35,987 nucleotides of DNA from assembly GCA_016212635.1 (NCBI GenBank), contig JACRFR010000023.1, positions 1 to 35,987 on the forward strand, written 5' to 3'. The position numbers and the translations under genes are program-made. The notes under the pieces are model-generated. The model did no database searches and was not told the origin of the DNA. It worked only from the letters and a program-made list of their open reading frames with translations. Below, one piece after another: positions 106 through 30,072 of the stretch. This stretch comes from Candidatus Liptonbacteria bacterium. GTDB lineage: Bacteria > Patescibacteriota > Minisyncoccia > UBA6257 > 2-01-FULL-56-20. How positions within the stretch are numbered: position 1 is the first letter of the stretch; each line of letters opens with the position of its first letter.

Positions 106-248
106 ACCACTTGGGTAGTTTTCAGTTCATACCTCGTCAGCGTGCTGCGAGGTGGTTGATTGGAAATGGCGTGATTCAAGCCTCTTCGCGGTTACCGGCC
201 ACTGCCCCCGTTGCCCCACGCCATCCATTGGAAGTCGCGAGCCGTATT

Positions 249-284
249 TGGTATTATATTATCCGATCGACCAGTATAATACCA
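249..284. repeat. 36-bp imperfect palindrome, family A, upstream of PaaX-like gene 1; contains TATAAT (275-280)
   Basis: TGGTATTATA-ttatc-CGATCG-accag-TATAATACCA; near-copy at 1028-1065. Confidence 0.85.
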
Positions 285-323
285 GAAACAATTTAAAGAA
301 CGGCCAGGGGCTGATCAGGGAAT

Positions 324-944
324 ATGAAAGGGGATTGGACCATACAAATTCTGGAAGGGTTTAAACAGGCCGCGCTGGACCTGCCTACGGCGCTACAGGC
401 GTTTTTGGAATCGGGCTACGGGGCCAGCGCCGGGAAGATGATTCGCCGGTTCGACGAACTGCAAAACCAGAAGTTGATCGAACGCCAAGAAGACGAGTTG
501 TTTTCTCGCGAGCGGCGCCGGTTCTATAATCTCGTATCCTGGCTGAAAAAGGACGGATTGGTAGAGGCCAAGCGGCGACCGGCAGGGATCTTTTATCGAA
601 CTACCAGCAAGGGACTGAAGAAGCTTGAACATTTGTATCACAGGAAAAGTTCCGTTTTGCCCGCGCCTAGATATTCCGGCGTTCCAAGCAACCGTTTGAC
701 CATCGTCAGTTACGATATACCCGAGCGTCACCGCCGCAAGCGACGCTGGGTAAGTGCGTGTCTGCTAGGTTTGGGCTTTCAAGCCGTGCACCGGAGCGTC
801 TATCTGGGGAAGGTGGTCCTGCCGCGGGAGTTTATCCAGAGCATCGGTCGATTGAAACTAGCGGGATATTTGGAAATATTCGAGATCACTAAGTCCGGTA
901 CCTTGCGCCGACTGACCGAGCCCTCGACCGGGAGTAACTCTTAG
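324..944 (+). CDS. PaaX-like protein: winged-HTH plus Cas2/VapD-like domain (206 aa)
   Basis: LVSWLKKDGLV…YRTTSKG wHTH signature, then IVSYDIPE…LLGLGFQAVHRSVYLG typical of the PaaX central/Cas2-like domain; no PaaX C-terminal domain. Confidence 0.8.
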   Translation: MKGDWTIQILEGFKQAALDLPTALQAFLESGYGASAGKMIRRFDELQNQKLIERQEDELFSRERRRFYNLVSWLKKDGLVEAKRRPAGIFYRTTSKGLKKLEHLYHRKSSVLPAPRYSGVPSNRLTIVSYDIPERHRRKRRWVSACLLGLGFQAVHRSVYLGKVVLPREFIQSIGRLKLAGYLEIFEITKSGTLRRLTEPSTGSNS

Positions 945-1027
945 GCGATTATGTCTTATCGGAGCGGCGCACAGCGCCGGAATTCTGTTACCAAGATCGG
1001 AATGCTAACCCCCGGTACCTTAACCCT

Positions 1028-1065
1028 CTTGTATTATACCAATCGATCGACCGGTATAATACAAG
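1028..1065. repeat. 38-bp palindrome, family A, downstream of PaaX-like gene 1
   Basis: CTTGTATTATACC-aat-CGATCG-acc-GGTATAATACAAG with perfect 13-bp arms. Confidence 0.9.
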
Positions 1066-1297
1066 CAAGGGGTGGATGGGGGGTGGATTTGGATGTCGGG
1101 TTTTCCCTGCGTCAGAATTTGCGAACCGATTCCCAAACTCTGGTCAGGGGAGCGCGCGGCGGTTGAGGGCGCGCGCTCCGAAGCGTTTTTCCTTTGACCG
1201 TCAGTGGGGGGACGGTCAATCCCGATTAGTCATCGGGACCCGCCCAGGTTTTCGGGCGTACGGGATTGTTCAGCGTCGGCTCCCGCTGGGCCGGATG

Positions 1298-1633
1298 TTA
1301 GGCGTCTGGGGGCGCGAGTTTTGCGAGCTTGCCCCAGACGAAGAAGCTTGCAGTTGGGTGGATCAACTGCCCGGCCGAGTTCCTCTTGAACCCGGCCTCG
1401 AGCATGGTTTTCACCCATGCCCGTGCTTCTTCCTCGGACGTCTCATACGACTGGACGTCCGCGTTGTACGGCCACCAGGCCGTACAATCCGCCGGCTTAC
1501 TGCACCGGCGGATCTCCCCCCTGAAACCGGGCGGGGGCGCCAATCGCTCCCCCCCGGTGTCCGGCACCAGGGAGGCGCTCCCCCATCGATCTTCCCCGTT
1601 TGGCTCATTCCGAGCCAAAAATTCTATTTTCAT
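1298..1633 (-). CDS. hypothetical protein (111 aa, MKIEFLARNEP…)
   Basis: ATG at 1633 preceded by an AGGAG Shine-Dalgarno; plausible composition; no family recognised. Confidence 0.55.
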   Translation of the reverse strand: MKIEFLARNEPNGEDRWGSASLVPDTGGERLAPPPGFRGEIRRCSKPADCTAWWPYNADVQSYETSEEEARAWVKTMLEAGFKRNSAGQLIHPTASFFVWGKLAKLAPPDA

Positions 1634-1848: not shown

Positions 1849-1877
1849 TTGATAATTAAGCCGATTTTAGCTATAAT
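1849..1877 (+). promoter_or_regulatory. sigma70-like promoter for the MNT-HEPN pair
   Basis: TTGATA-17 bp-TATAAT. Confidence 0.6.
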
Positions 1878-1914
1878 ACTGTAGCATAAAGATTGTAATA
1901 TGTCAATATGAAAC

Positions 1915-2035
1915 GGCCTGTCGGAAACGTCAAAAAGTTATTCCCTGAGCCCGTCGAAGGGTAGCTTTTTGGCGGGTACATGGCATGGCCCTCGACAAGC
2001 TCGGGCAATAAAATCGGTGGTTTCCGAACAGCGCC
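1915..2035 (+). mobile_element. ~120-bp MITE-like element, copy 1
   Basis: Near-identical to 28499-28610 and the reverse complement of 35623-35745; right end GTTTCCGAACAGCGCC, degenerate left end; flanked by ATATGAAA on both sides. Confidence 0.8.
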
Positions 2036-2037
2036 AT

Positions 2038-2442
2038 ATGAAAAACGTCAGGAAAATTACAAACTACTTATCTAAAATCCCGGCAATCCAGGCGGTCTAT
2101 CTTTTCGGCTCCGTGGCGGAGGGGCGAGAACGGCAGGACAGCGATGTGGATATAGCGGTGCTTTTGTCGTATAAGTTGACCGCGAGTCAGCGTTTTCATT
2201 TACGGACCAGATTGTCTGCTGATCTTGCCGGGCAAATGAAGCGTCGAGTGGATGTAGTAGTATTAAACGACGTCCAATCGGTGTTTTTTAAGTATGTGAT
2301 CATCAAAGAGGGTCGGTTGATCTATCAAAGGTCCGAACTGTCGCGGGCGGAGTTTGAGTGTCGGACGCTTGGCGACTACTTTGACTTTCAACCGTTCCTT
2401 AATCTGTATAATCAACATTATGTCACGCGAAACGCGCGCTAA
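2038..2442 (+). CDS. minimal nucleotidyltransferase (MNT) antitoxin
   Basis: YLFGS-x10-DVD motif (GSVAEGRERQDSDVD) and VDVVVLN; start moved to ATG 2038 because the upstream ORF extension is the repeat element. Confidence 0.9.
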   Translation: MKNVRKITNYLSKIPAIQAVYLFGSVAEGRERQDSDVDIAVLLSYKLTASQRFHLRTRLSADLAGQMKRRVDVVVLNDVQSVFFKYVIIKEGRLIYQRSELSRAEFECRTLGDYFDFQPFLNLYNQHYVTRNAR

Positions 2443-2869
2443 AATCATCGCCAAGCTGGATAAGCTGGATGAGTATCTGGAGTATTTGGCTAAAATCAGG
2501 CGGGTGGACGAGAAGACCTTTTTGGCAGATTACCGCATATTCGGCGCGGCCGAGCGCTACCTGCAGTTAGCCATTGAAGTTCTCCTGGATGTCGGCAAAC
2601 TCTTAGTGGTTTTGGAAAACCTGCGTCGGCCGGATACTAATCAGGATATTTTCACCATCCTCGCCGAACGGAAAGTAATTTCTCGAGCGCTTCTGGATCG
2701 CCTGCAGAGGCTGGTCGGTTTCCGGAATATTTTAGTGCACGACTATGAAAAAATAGACCGGCAGATCGTGTTTCGGAACTTGCGCCGCAATCTCAAGGAC
2801 TTTCAAGATTTTCGCCGCGCGATTATCCGGTATCTCCGCGGGTCCAGCGGTCCATACAAAAAGTCATAG
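2420..2869 (+). CDS. HEPN/DUF86 RNase toxin (HepT-like)
   Basis: AAERYLQLAIE and the R-x4-H motif FRNILVHDY; ATG 2420 overlaps the MNT end. Confidence 0.9.
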   Translation: MSRETRAKIIAKLDKLDEYLEYLAKIRRVDEKTFLADYRIFGAAERYLQLAIEVLLDVGKLLVVLENLRRPDTNQDIFTILAERKVISRALLDRLQRLVGFRNILVHDYEKIDRQIVFRNLRRNLKDFQDFRRAIIRYLRGSSGPYKKS

Positions 2870-22105: not shown

Positions 22106-22145
22106 ATCTGCTAGTTTGACAACGATCGTTGTCAAACTAGCAGAT
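22106..22145. repeat. perfect 40-bp palindrome
   Basis: ATCTGCTAGTTTGACAACGA|TCGTTGTCAAACTAGCAGAT. Confidence 0.95.
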
Positions 22146-22253: not shown

Positions 22254-23825
22254 ATGGGCGCAGCGATTGAGTCGCAGTATGCTCTCGCGTACGCCCGCAA
22301 GCTCGGGGCGTCCTACGCGGATCTGCGCGTTACCCGCCGCCGAGCGGAGCGCGCAGAGCTAACCGATGGAGTTTCACCCGGGCTGTCCGGTAGCAATACG
22401 GCCGGCCTGGGCATCAGAGTCCTTGTGAGTGGCGCCCGGGGTTTTTCGAGCATTCAGCTCGACGGGACTCCGGGCCGCGCCAGCTTACGTGAACTGGTTC
22501 GGGAAGCGGTGGAGTTGGCGAAAGTCAGCGCCAAATTTCGCGCTTCGCGAATCCGGCTCGCGCCGCTTCGCGGATTTAGTCCTGGGAAGGTTGACTGTCG
22601 CAGTAGCGCGACTACGCCTTATCACGGACTAGCCCCCAGAGAGAGAATGCGTGTCCTGCGCGAGTGGGACAACGCCCTCCACGGCCGCATGGTGGCCCAG
22701 CGAACCGTCGCGATTGAAACCGACCAGTGCGACTACTACTTCGCGCAGGTCGAGCGCGGCGAGTTCCGCGAGATCCACCAGAACCGGCGAGGGTGCGAGC
22801 TGGATATTTCCGTAACCGCGATCGGTCACGGGGAAGTCCAGACCCGCTCGCGGCTTTTCGCTGGAACTGTCGGCTACTCTTTCCCGCTGACCGAAGCCGT
22901 GGAGAAAGAGTGCCGCCGGCTGCGCGTGGAAGCGACCCGCCTACTCCGCGCACCGGAGTGCCGCGAGAACAGGTGCGATCTGATCATCCTGCCGGATCAG
23001 TTTGCACTTCACGCGCACGAACTGGTCCATGGTATGGAAGGCGACCGGATTGGCGACTGGAAAGACAACCGGATTGGTGAATGGACCGAGGGTCTGGACT
23101 ATGAGGCTACCTACATGGGTGGCGCCATCATGTCTGATCCGAGGTTTCTTGCCGGTCAGGGTGAGTTCCGTCTGGCGAACAAGTGTGTCACGCTTCTCGC
23201 GGACGCGACTTTGCCTGGTGGATACGGGACGTTCAACTTTGACGACGATGGCGTGCCCGCCGCCAACTTTCCGCTTCTCGAGCAGGGAGTGTTCCAAAAC
23301 TTCTTGCACTCGCGGGAAACGGCGGGCATGCTCGCCCGGGCGACCAAGAATCACGAACTCCGCCGGAGCCCCGGTATTGGCTGCTCGCGCGCGTCCGACT
23401 ACAGTCGGATGCCGCTTGTTCGGATGACCAACACCGTGTTGGTTCCGGGCGAGGCAACACTCAAAGCGCTGGTTGCCGGCGTCGATCGCGGGCTGATAAT
23501 CGCTACGCCTTACTCGTGGTCAATGTATCCCTTTCGTCGGGGATTTATATTTGGCTGCGAGATCGGATGGCTGATCAAGGGCGGGAAGATCGTGGGCATG
23601 GTCCGAAACCCGGCCTACCGCGGCGGCACCGTCAAGTTCTGGAGCTCCATCCGGGCGGTTGGCTGCGAGTCCGAGATTCACAACCAACCCAACTGTGGGA
23701 AGGGCCAGCCGGGACAGGCCATCGGCACCGGGCACCAGACGCCGCCGGTCCTCGTGGAGGGCGTCCAGGTGTTCAGTCGCCGGAAGTTTCGGGGAGGGAA
23801 GAAAGGAGGCAAAAAATGCTCTTAG
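22254..23825 (+). CDS. tldD: TldD/PmbA family metalloprotease, catalytic subunit
   Basis: YADLR, GLGIRVL, HELVHGMEGD (HExxH), FDDDGVP, RMTNT, CGKGQPGQ; AGGAGG SD. Confidence 0.88.
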   Translation: MGAAIESQYALAYARKLGASYADLRVTRRRAERAELTDGVSPGLSGSNTAGLGIRVLVSGARGFSSIQLDGTPGRASLRELVREAVELAKVSAKFRASRIRLAPLRGFSPGKVDCRSSATTPYHGLAPRERMRVLREWDNALHGRMVAQRTVAIETDQCDYYFAQVERGEFREIHQNRRGCELDISVTAIGHGEVQTRSRLFAGTVGYSFPLTEAVEKECRRLRVEATRLLRAPECRENRCDLIILPDQFALHAHELVHGMEGDRIGDWKDNRIGEWTEGLDYEATYMGGAIMSDPRFLAGQGEFRLANKCVTLLADATLPGGYGTFNFDDDGVPAANFPLLEQGVFQNFLHSRETAGMLARATKNHELRRSPGIGCSRASDYSRMPLVRMTNTVLVPGEATLKALVAGVDRGLIIATPYSWSMYPFRRGFIFGCEIGWLIKGGKIVGMVRNPAYRGGTVKFWSSIRAVGCESEIHNQPNCGKGQPGQAIGTGHQTPPVLVEGVQVFSRRKFRGGKKGGKKCS

Positions 23826-25428: not shown

Positions 25429-25472
25429 TCCATAATCTCCCCTTCGACGGCCGTCGAAGGGGAGATTATGGA
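25429..25472. repeat. perfect 44-bp palindrome
   Basis: TCCATAATCTCCCCTTCGACGG|CCGTCGAAGGGGAGATTATGGA. Confidence 0.95.
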
Positions 25473-25571
25473 TATAGAGTGCTTCCCGGATATTTAGCAC
25501 TTTAAACGGGGACCAGATTGGGCGCGGCTAGCTTACCTTTCCTTGGGGAGGATGTTATACTAATCACTATC

Positions 25572-26504
25572 ATGCCCAACACTCTTGGTTACGACCAGCC
25601 GCTTTTTATCCTGGCTTTTGACCAGCGGGCTTCGATTTTAGAGAAGCTTCTTCAATTGTCTCCGGGTCAGACGCCATCGCCGGAAGTGGCGGATCAAATG
25701 GAGCGCTTTAAAACTGCTATTTATGAGGGTTTTCGCTATGCTCTGGCACACGGCGTACCGCAAGCAGAAGCGGCAATTCTAGTGGATGAGCAGTACGGCC
25801 ACGCGATTCTGCACGACGCTGTCTTCCACGGCTTCACCGTGGCGCTGACCACCGAGAAGACTGGTCAACACGAATTCGATTTTGAGTATGGCGATGAGTT
25901 CACCTCCCACCTCCTGAAATACCGCCCGACTTTCGCCAAGGTGCTGGTGCGGCATAACCCCGAAGCGGGGGATGCGTTAAACGTCCACGAGCATGCCAAG
26001 CTGGTCCGGCTGCGGGAGTTTTGCGACCGGGAGAACTTCAAGCTCTTGGTCGAGTTGATCTTGCCTCCGACCGATGCGCAGCTGGCCTGGGTGGGCAACG
26101 ACCTGGCCCGCTACGATCGCGAAATTCGACCCGCCCTGGAAATTAAGCTGGTCAAACAGTTTCAAAACGCAGGGATCGAGGCGGACGTTTGGAAAATAGA
26201 AGGCTTGACCAGCGCGGAGCAGTATCGGGCGTTGGTCGGCCAGGTGCAAAGCGGGGGACGAGATAAGGTCGGCGTGGCGGTGCTCGGCCGCGCGGCGAGC
26301 GATGAGCAAGTGGAAGAGTGGCTCCGGGTCGGCGCGGGCGTGGACGGGGTGATCGGTTTCGCCGTGGGCCGGACAATTTTCTGGGAGCCGATCGCGCGTT
26401 ACCACCAAGGGAGCCAGACCTGGGAACAAACCGTGGAGCAGATTGGCGAACACTATCTGCATTTTTATCGAGTTTTTAGTAACATCAAGTCGAAAAAGTC
26501 ATAG
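25572..26504 (+). CDS. DUF2090 domain protein (IolC C-terminal-like, class I aldolase/TIM-barrel)
   Basis: LFILAFDQR, ILVDEQYG, KVLVRHNP, ADVWKIEG, VLGRA, GFAVGRTIF; ATG 25572 follows the extended -10 TGTTATACT. Confidence 0.82.
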   Translation: MPNTLGYDQPLFILAFDQRASILEKLLQLSPGQTPSPEVADQMERFKTAIYEGFRYALAHGVPQAEAAILVDEQYGHAILHDAVFHGFTVALTTEKTGQHEFDFEYGDEFTSHLLKYRPTFAKVLVRHNPEAGDALNVHEHAKLVRLREFCDRENFKLLVELILPPTDAQLAWVGNDLARYDREIRPALEIKLVKQFQNAGIEADVWKIEGLTSAEQYRALVGQVQSGGRDKVGVAVLGRAASDEQVEEWLRVGAGVDGVIGFAVGRTIFWEPIARYHQGSQTWEQTVEQIGEHYLHFYRVFSNIKSKKS

Positions 26505-29511: not shown

Positions 29512-29549
29512 CATCTATTCTATTGTTCTTGAGAACAATAGAATAGATG
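29512..29549. repeat. 38-bp palindrome with 18-bp perfect arms
   Basis: CATCTATTCTATTGTTCT-tg-AGAACAATAGAATAGATG. Confidence 0.92.
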
Positions 29550-29931: not shown

Positions 29932-29978
29932 TTTAGCGCAACTTGTCCCACTTGCCTCCGTTCCGTCCCTACGGCACC

Positions 29979-30072
29979 TTACCACATTATCTGGCTATGA
30001 CCAGATAATGTGGTAAAGCAATAGTGGCTCCACACCACCATGTTATCTAGCTATGACCGGATAGTGTGGTAA
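29979..30072. repeat. two tandem ~38-bp palindromes, family B, upstream of PaaX-like gene 2
   Basis: TTACCACATTATCTGG-ctatga-CCAGATAATGTGGTAA (29979-30016) and a degenerate copy at 30035-30072 whose right arm carries TGGTAAAAT. Confidence 0.88.

Follow-up and report, generated by a model that had tools for sequence, protein, structure and literature searches.

The stretch of DNA analysed here, hereafter the window, is the complete 35,987-nucleotide contig JACRFR010000023.1 of a Candidatus Liptonbacteria assembly (GCA_016212635.1; 65 contigs, 1,019,521 bp, completeness 94%, G+C 54%; hereafter G000), in which it is contig C63. Near its left end lies a gene for a 206-residue protein, hereafter gene 1, which resembles a truncated member of the PaaX family and stands between two long, related palindromes (Table 1). 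The upstream copy, a putative operator, carries 10-bp perfect arms (TGGTATTATA and TATAATACCA) around TTATC-CGATCG-ACCAG, with CGATCG at its centre, and ends 39 nt ahead of the ATG; the downstream sibling has 13-bp perfect arms (CTTGTATTATACC and GGTATAATACAAG) around AA-TCGATCGA-CC, begins 83 nt after the gene and lies between convergent genes. Both are recovered by the repeat search of the window (I19 upstream and I6 downstream), and the pattern that they share, GTATTATA-N5-CGATCG-N5-TATAATAC, has exactly two matches in the window and none in 100 dinucleotide-preserving shuffles. No third site occurs in the assembly, even when up to five substitutions are allowed. When folded as single strands and compared with shuffles, one copy gives a z-score of -3.6 (2 of 200 as good) and the other -6.6 (0 of 200). 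The initial annotation of the window, made from its sequence alone, had described this bracketing pair, and every checkable detail of that description proved correct, the pair being unique to gene 1 in the genome. The probable -10 box that it had placed in the upstream copy is found there by consensus match: the TATTAT of a putative promoter sits inside the left arm, and a TATAAT (274-279) lies in the right arm. A terminator-like hairpin is located between the stop codon of gene 1 and the downstream palindrome, and a further G+C-rich hairpin about 85 nt beyond that palindrome is a possible terminator on the + strand. The convergent ORF that follows returned no family in a Pfam scan of 1298-1708.

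Table 1. Features of the window, with the gene 1 locus first and other elements mentioned in the text below it.
Feature	Position	Strand	Basis and remarks
Promoter-like site, TTGGAA-18 nt-TATTAT (putative)	228..257	+	Consensus scan, 9/12 matches; TG ahead of -10
Upstream palindrome (putative operator)	249..284	.	TGGTATTATA-TTATCCGATCGACCAG-TATAATACCA
Gene 1, truncated PaaX-family protein, 206 aa	324..944	+	ORF list, Pfam, AlphaFold2, Foldseek, alignment
Terminator-like hairpin (putative)	965..989	+	CGGCGCACAGCGCCG then GAATTCTGTT; consensus scan; weak T tract
Downstream sibling palindrome	1028..1065	.	CTTGTATTATACC-AATCGATCGACC-GGTATAATACAAG
G+C-rich hairpin	1149..1195	+	GGAGCGCGCGGC-ggttgag-GGCGCGCGCTCC then gaagcgTTTTT; palindrome scan; inner stem 1173-1186 also in consensus scan
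Convergent ORF	1298..1633	-	ORF list; start set at 1633 from AGGAG ahead of ATG
Repeat at left end	1..161		Matches many short contigs
Translated stretch PELVEGHAMYPPKSYPSTGSGNNFLTFP	1871..2008	-	Dispersed DNA repeat
Nucleotidyltransferase and HEPN RNase genes, overlapping	1969..2869		MNT-type (Polbeta, E 1.4e-22); HepT-like (E 7e-31)
40-bp perfect palindrome	22106..22145		Type-B centre ACGA·TCGT; TTGACA in each arm
TldD/PmbA gene	22254..23825
44-bp perfect palindrome	25429..25472		Near-identical to flank palindrome of the C60 paralogue
DUF2090 gene	25518..26504
Palindrome of the TTCTATTGTTCT family	29512..29549		Fills a 55-nt spacer
Gene 2 upstream palindromes	29977..30018; about 30033..30075
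Gene 2, PaaX_M protein, 190 aa	30093..30665		Type A; E 4.6e-22
Gene 2 downstream palindrome, 46 bp	30713..30758

Residues 126-192 of the gene 1 product match both PaaX_M (PF20803; E 5.9e-07, 29.9 bits, cut-off 24) and, just over its cut-off of 23.8 bits, CRISPR_Cas2 (PF09827; E 1.6e-05, 25.4 bits), while the Pfam similarity of residues 19-70 to PadR reaches 19.7 bits and stays under the 27-bit cut-off. The sole match in NCBIfam is to Cas2 (TIGR01573), at 22.4 bits under the cut-off of 24.5, and the PaaX equivalog model TIGR02277 is not matched by gene 1; gene 2 of the window, a second PaaX_M gene, scores 28.9 bits against the cut-off of 264.55 of that model. In a phmmer search of PDB sequences, residues 67-107 are weakly similar to the recognition helix and wing of HlyU (ArsR-type; E 0.015). 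An AlphaFold2 model built from 26 homologues (mean pLDDT 85.4) predicts an N-terminal winged helix (helices 2-15, 20-30 and 36-76, beta wing 80-93) and a ferredoxin-like C-terminal domain (120-196) with the beta-alpha-beta-beta-alpha-beta order of Cas2; the putative recognition helix is RRFYNLVSWLKKDG. At the top of the Foldseek list stand E. coli PaaX (8a39), many Cas2 chains and VapD. A homodimer prediction scored 0.02 against a mark of 0.42, which has no bearing either way. The aspartate of the YDIP motif, which had been likened to the catalytic Asp of Cas2 and VapD, is D131 in YDIPE and is invariant in all 26 aligned homologues, as are P133, R140, W142 and S158. The paa genes, which had been noted as lacking, and the extra C-terminal domain of canonical PaaX are without a match in the 94%-complete genome (PaaA/PaaC, PF05138; PaaX_C, PF08223), as is Cas1 (PF01867), and the tandem repeats of the window include no CRISPR-like array. 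Because of these domain matches, and because PaaX_C, PaaA/PaaC and Cas1 are missing, gene 1 is classed by its sequence as a two-domain relative of PaaX, distinct both from PaaX orthologues and from the Cas2 of CRISPR systems.

Gene 1 is one of 14 PaaX_M genes in G000, which form two subfamilies of seven (type A and type B), and ten of the 14 carry a distinct palindrome of their own on both flanks. The paired type-B genes are gene 1 and the paralogues on contigs C60, C52, C25, C32 and C2, the C1 paralogue having the downstream copy only. The paired type-A genes are gene 2 of the window, the C58 paralogue and both C7 genes, in one of which the downstream copy is 486 nt off; the C27 paralogue has one palindrome and those on C46 and C24 have none. 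Type-B centres read CGA·TCG or CGATCG and type-A centres are GCCA·TGGC-like. Gene 2 has two palindromes upstream and one sibling downstream, all of which share ACCAC-N-TATCTRG, so that the bracket is the same as that of gene 1 in another sequence.

The layout was followed beyond G000 in a scan with one genome per species, which gave 80 loci; 48 near-full-length homologues were analysed and 32 partial matches were set aside. Palindromes were called when each arm had at least 11 matched pairs, up to 300 nt after the stop codon and up to 200 nt before the start codon, and gene contexts are approximate, being the longest ORFs, as a simple gene caller places starts poorly. Judged by the names on the homologues, the relatives are Paceibacteria/Parcubacteria such as Liptonbacteria. 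A palindrome was found downstream in 39 of the 48 loci, upstream in 30 and on both sides in 27. The arms were compared at positions 6-18 from the centre, leaving out the shared centre: copies from the same locus agree on average at 11.4 of 13 positions, with at least nine in all 27 pairs, and copies from different loci at 4.5, with at least nine in 2%. Palindromes occur at 3.18 per kb in the flanks, compared with 0.17 in the rest of the loci, 0.07 inside the gene and 0.01 in shuffled sequence, and the CGA·TCG type of centre characterises 51 of the 79 palindromes in the flanks and none of the 18 elsewhere in the loci. Eighteen loci found in 14 relatives by a genome search have the same layout, and of eight type-A loci in relatives, cognate pairs are clear in four and weaker in a fifth. 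A profile search sizes the family at 743 clusters at 50% identity with E <= 1e-30, or 1821 with E <= 1e-10. The gene with its two palindromes, which the initial annotation had conceived as a cassette, is a recurrent unit, and so far from mostly lacking paired palindromes, homologues carry them in 27 of 48 loci, all of them cognate. The bracket is real and far more general than gene 1 alone, and the operator-gene-operator layout is a trait conserved across the mini-PaaX family. No account of this layout was found in the open full-text literature, a scope that leaves out subscription journals, nor did any paper in it join 'PaaX' with 'Cas2'; for 'Cas2-like' together with 'winged helix', the passage retrieved covers only Cas2-like proteins in integron cassettes (PMC3710099).

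The arms of the palindromes vary with the protein that they flank. Across 49 proteins (loci without a palindrome or with an in-frame stop were left out), half-site similarity correlates with similarity of the helix plus wing at a Spearman coefficient of 0.217, a value that none of 500 Mantel permutations reached; the corresponding values are 0.149 for the N-terminal segment (4 of 500) and 0.156 for the Cas2-like domain (1 of 500). All three correlations are inflated by shared ancestry, so that it is the difference between them that counts, and in this covariation check, which the initial annotation had proposed, the arms track the recognition helix most. Individual groups follow the same line: helices of the form T-L-[ILV]-S-R-L-K-K-D go with CCTTACA arms (loci L059 and L081 and the C2 paralogue), YYN[LIF][LI]YKLK with ACTATCC (L047, L054, L058 and L060) and RRLxxFISKMKHDG with GTTTACYAT (L061, L070 and L074). 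An xSWL/AWL helix goes with TTATTA-type arms in gene 1 (RRFYNLVSWLKKDG) and in its nearest relative, L016, which is 40% identical, has the helix RRYYNLISWLQRDG (YNLISWL) and carries TTATTAWAT arms on both sides; both loci have TATTATA-type arms on either side of the gene. Covariation of the arms with the recognition helix, and the possession of a private palindrome by each paralogue, make the product of the flanked gene, through its predicted winged helix, the most likely reader of the palindromes, as had been suggested for the ends of the gene 1 unit.

Upstream copies end 4-170 nt ahead of the start codon in the homologous loci, and by eye a TATAAT-like hexamer lies in or directly after the right arm of many of them (L049, L053, L054, L060, L065 and L085). 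In gene 1, with TATTAT and TATAAT in the arms and TTGGAA 18 nt ahead, a bound protein would cover the region from -35 to -10, which is the classical position of an autorepressor. Downstream copies lie in most loci between -1 and about 70 nt after the stop codon. The next ORF after the downstream palindrome, considered in 39 loci, is co-directional in 21 and convergent in 16, with none seen in two; that of gene 1 is convergent. The downstream copy is therefore not generally the operator of a neighbour, the neighbours being convergent in 16 of 37 loci. This agrees with the earlier argument that a simple repressor would not need the downstream copy, which is kept beside convergent neighbours in these loci, gene 1 included.

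Among known systems, PaaX offers the closest geometry. Passages of a review (PMC9493321) describe E. coli PaaX as binding TGATTC-N27-GAATCA, a wide-spaced inverted repeat of 39 bp, and as repressing its own Px promoter through steric hindrance of RNA polymerase, and describe a Jannaschia homologue with a winged helix, a motif for dimerization and a domain at the C terminus. The PaaX proteins of the phenylacetate catabolon in E. coli and Pseudomonas (8a39 and 3l09) share with gene 1 the order of a winged helix, predicted in the case of gene 1, and then a PaaX_M Cas2-like domain. The wide-spaced inverted repeat of 39 bp compares with 32-38 bp here and has the geometry of the 32-48-bp palindromes, whose specific parts are situated about 8-20 bp away from the centre. 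The differences are that gene 1, at 206 aa, is without PaaX_C and without a TIGR02277 match in a genome that has no paa genes; that the whole palindrome including its CGA·TCG centre is conserved here rather than two hexamers; that a second copy stands behind the gene; and that 14 paralogues share a 1-Mb genome. With Cas2 and VapD the C-terminal domain has in common a predicted ferredoxin-like fold and a beta1 motif, hydrophobic-x-[FY]-D-[IV]-P, with its invariant Asp; it differs from Cas2 in being fused to a predicted winged helix, in the lack of a Cas1 match in the genome and of an array among the tandem repeats of the window, and in a TIGR01573 score under the cut-off. Homologues P0002, P0020, P0034 and P0046 are named 'CRISPR-associated endonuclease Cas2' in public records, and this name on proteins that join a winged helix to a Cas2-like domain is probably a systematic misannotation in Paceibacteria. 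In phage lambda, the CI repressor gene lies between the OL and OR operator sets, which loop, the distal set sharpening autoregulation. A repressor gene flanked on both sides by its own operators is common to both cases; lambda, however, has three sites per side, 2.4 kb apart, and a repressor of another fold, and looping is hypothetical for the locus described here. RAYT genes with REP sequences likewise consist of a gene flanked by cognate hairpin-capable repeats, and both the flanking of gene 1 by such repeats and the possession of a repeat family by each paralogue recall them, whereas gene 1 lacks an HUH/Y1 domain, its repeat is not dispersed, and its repeats are true palindromes at promoter-like positions.

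Taken together, the evidence on the locus, on its homologues and on known systems leads us to favour, at a probability of roughly 0.6, the interpretation that gene 1 encodes an autorepressor acting on wide palindromes of the PaaX style, with the 3' copy as an auxiliary operator. The protein would be a mini-PaaX, a PadR/PaaX-like winged helix joined to a Cas2-like domain without the C-terminal effector domain, and would sit as a symmetric oligomer on its own palindrome of about 36 bp. Two winged helices would read the outer arms (GTATTATA) and the conserved protein body would lie over the family-wide centre CGA·TCG. Binding at the upstream copy, which extends over the -10 region of the putative promoter, would shut off transcription of the gene itself. 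The downstream copy would be a second, auxiliary operator belonging to the gene 1 unit; either it may reinforce autorepression through a loop that contains the gene, or protein bound to it may form a roadblock or boundary at the 3' end. The initial annotation had offered an autoregulator using DNA looping as one of two possibilities. Its autoregulatory part fits better than the mobile unit given as the other, in the form of a second-operator autoregulator that matches the geometry of PaaX; its looping part fares less well, the helical phasing of the two sites being a hint at best. On a first look, the centre-to-centre distances gave R 0.50 at 10.5 bp (n = 27).

Several observations weigh against this interpretation. 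With cognate pairs only, to which the pairs of G000 and of four relatives were added, the best phasing is a marginal R of 0.38 at 10.44 bp (n = 36), a value that 91 of 2000 jittered nulls also attained; restricted to the 30 unique distances, R is 0.32. The Foldseek matches are weak, the best having E 0.023 and none E <= 0.001, and at the threshold used 9 of the 48 homologues have no downstream palindrome and 18 no upstream one. The palindromes of other paralogues also occur where no promoter is expected. Dispersed copies number about 12 for the C32 type (at least one pair of which is the same site on overlapping contig ends), nine for C25, seven for C60, five for C1, four for C58 and three for C52. 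Of the 39 type-B palindromes, spacers between convergent genes contain 7, tandem spacers 17 and divergent spacers 2, while 11 lie at the ends of contigs and 2 within ORFs. Intergenic sequence divides by length into 16% convergent, 68% tandem and 16% divergent, and against this background the palindromes are not depleted in convergent spacers. The genes beside dispersed copies show no common function: they encode Obg, PGA_cap, an epimerase, a UvrD/PD-(D/E)XK helicase-nuclease, EamA, an Orn/DAP decarboxylase, GatC, HD proteins, DNA polymerase III subunits, TyrRS and several family-less proteins. A 700-aa ORF (C54:16226-18328) bracketed by C32-type palindromes is left unexplained by a simple repressor model. 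The conservation and symmetry of 36-50 bp, moreover, go far beyond the needs of a regulon of 2-12 sites. In 31 pairs, sibling copies differ by 39 symmetric changes affecting both arms, 29 one-arm changes and 5 others, an arm symmetry that is far above that of independently evolving arms and that a plain operator model does not predict. A count of variant symmetry within palindrome families was not used, being swamped by flank positions. Templated correction of quasi-palindromes during replication is an alternative source of symmetric changes that needs no function, and such templated mutation could have produced the changes seen here. Selection for a hairpin would also explain them, but the mismatches between arms show no bias towards G.U on the sense strand and few copies are followed by a T tract.

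A doubtful but conceivable extension would make the family a boundary system, in which each paralogue clamps the long palindromes on either side of the gene that encodes it and of certain targets; the 700-aa ORF on C54 would be an example of such a target. A Cas2-like dimer might then read or act on the CGA·TCG centre, and the resulting protein-bridged loops or roadblocks might insulate transcription units in genomes with very short spacers. Duplication and re-specification of the cassette as a unit would explain how 14 paralogues with 14 private palindromes came to share 1 Mb.

The other possibility raised by the initial annotation was a selfish or mobile cassette in the manner of RAYT and REP, whose protein, perhaps through the Asp of its Cas2-like domain, would nick or mobilise end palindromes that spread. 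The dispersal of other paralogues' palindromes, at about 3-12 copies per family and sometimes between convergent genes, is consistent with this, as are the share of type-B palindromes at contig ends, the presence of seven type-B and seven type-A paralogues in G000 compared with one or two matches in those relatives that have any, the concerted change of the arms, the invariance of the Asp and the occurrence of a genuine Y1 transposase gene with its own flanking palindromes in the same genome. That gene (IS200-like Y1_Tnp, E 1.8e-08; C40:8291-8968) is flanked by TACGCCTTCGCAAGACGTA palindromes (C40:8213-9040), which recur on C5, C13, C15, C53 and C61 and form a RAYT/REP-like system in G000. The palindrome of gene 1, however, is limited to its two flanking copies, and a Pfam scan of its product found no recombinase, transposase or HUH/Y1_Tnp domain; the same method does pick up Y1_Tnp at C40:8291-8968. 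The upstream copies take promoter-like positions, and the covariation of helix and arms points to a winged helix reading duplex DNA. Moreover, 16 of the 48 loci keep a housekeeping neighbour across genomes. Eight lie directly downstream of a tyrosine recombinase gene (65-82% identical; Phage_integrase with a SAM-like N-domain), which is taken as housekeeping and XerC/D-like because it is found in 40 of the 41 genomes of the relatives' sample; six lie downstream of gyrB and two beside recA. An empty-site search of 30 xer loci, that of G000 included, found no transcription factor-like gene, as recognized by a motif heuristic, up to 1.5 kb downstream and a solo palindrome of this kind in one genome only (G010). 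The stretch is present in three groundwater DNA sequencing runs of one study, with no RNA run listed among those that contain it, and the run contigs over it reveal neither a joint spanning the cassette nor any indel or variant letter; this is weak evidence, since it comes from assembled contigs, which rare excision could escape, and the contigs (Logan) give no cover at 189-282, ending short of the upstream palindrome. For gene 1, a RAYT-like unit is accordingly unlikely.

Two further explanations concern the downstream copy in particular, one of which holds that it serves the following transcription unit as operator, be this a neighbouring gene or a small RNA missing from the annotation, so that the bracket would simply result from a very small regulon in a compact genome. 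In 21 of 37 loci the ORF that follows is co-directional, and at gene 1 the TATAAT carried by the right arm of the downstream palindrome, together with a T-run hairpin about 85-130 nt farther on, could frame a short transcript. The ArsR-type gene on C43 has a palindrome before itself and another 59 nt before the next co-directional gene, and the DUF2090 gene of the window has, 46 nt upstream, a copy of the palindrome of the C60 paralogue; on the similarity of the two sequences, this copy is likely to be a distant target site of that paralogue. Against these points stand the convergent next ORFs in 16 of 37 loci and at gene 1, the lack of a consistent -10-like box after downstream copies (by eye) and the absence of any Rfam family from the window, and we regard this explanation as rather unlikely. 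The other, which seems improbable, is that the downstream palindrome acts as an RNA hairpin at the 3' end, terminating or stabilising the mRNA and perhaps being bound or cut, as a feedback, by the Cas2/VapD-like domain. VapD and some Cas2 proteins have been reported as RNases, and the PDB titles returned by Foldseek include 'putative ssRNA endonuclease Cas2'. The closeness of most downstream copies to the stop codon, the stable folding of both window copies as RNA (-12.9 and -18.4 kcal/mol), the concerted arm changes and the A-run and T-run borders of a few copies (for example L105, L099 and L071) would suit such a function. Only 2 of the 39 downstream copies, however, are followed by at least six T in 8 nt; the mismatches between arms (5 of G.U type, 11 of A.C type and 10 others) are not biased towards G.U on the sense strand; upstream copies, located at or ahead of the -10 box, would not be transcribed whole; and gene 1 has a separate terminator-like hairpin ahead of its palindrome. 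That the bracket is a chance product of a palindrome-rich genome has next to no probability: G000 does contain 253 long palindromes, but a shuffled genome yields three, the gene 1 motif is absent from 100 shuffles, and the layout with cognate arms recurs in 27 of 48 homologues. Palindrome families were defined by core motifs, since single-linkage clustering of 9-mers lumped 212 of the 253 together.

Other elements of the genome bear on these subjects more loosely. Two ArsR-type genes of G000 (HTH_5; C43:916-1415 and C38:416-1494) likewise have palindromes of their own, placed ahead of the gene itself and ahead of the co-directional gene that follows. A 40-bp perfect palindrome of the window with a type-B centre stands about 110 nt upstream of the TldD/PmbA gene and was matched to no paralogue. 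The palindrome that fills a 55-nt spacer, with a PD-(D/E)XK gene on one side and a 123-aa ORF on the other, belongs to the TTCTATTGTTCT family (7 genome copies), an orphan family like ACATTCCAACATTCTG (8 copies) and GACATTCTCACTTTCTT (5 copies). A hairpin of the form GAGGTCGGGCCTY-loop-RAGGCCCGACCTC is present in about 74 copies in G000, mostly in tandem spacers, and a 120-bp perfect palindrome at a contig end (C41:1-120) may reflect either a genuine hairpin end or a fold-back made in assembly. The translated stretch PELVEGHAMYPPKSYPSTGSGNNFLTFP, found in the window and at C48:17221-18369, is a DNA repeat of dispersed occurrence, and the GTTTCCGAACAGCGCC palindrome family forms part of it. Beyond the convergent ORF, the overlapping genes for an MNT-type nucleotidyltransferase and a HepT-like HEPN RNase form a toxin-antitoxin-like pair. 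The first 161 nt of the window have a word depth of 60-340x compared with 5-7.5x for gene 1 and are a repeat shared within or between community members. Searches of the window with Rfam at the gathering threshold and with ARAGORN for tRNAs gave no match.

Genomes of the candidate phyla (Paceibacteria/Parcubacteria) have few recognisable regulators, and the mini-PaaX family in them is large, yet public annotation often files its members as 'CRISPR-associated endonuclease Cas2' or 'hypothetical'. If these are sequence-specific DNA-binding proteins, the labels are wrong and counts of Cas2 in these lineages are inflated. The 3' copy, the invariant centre and the near-perfect symmetry over 36-50 bp exceed what the passages of PMC9493321 describe for PaaX, and these features raise the question of the role of the Cas2-like domain on DNA. 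With a protein's binding site spelled out on either flank of its gene, and with arms and recognition helix cleanly paired across dozens of genomes, a recognition code would be readable from sequence alone, which would make the prediction of regulons in uncultured bacteria directly testable.

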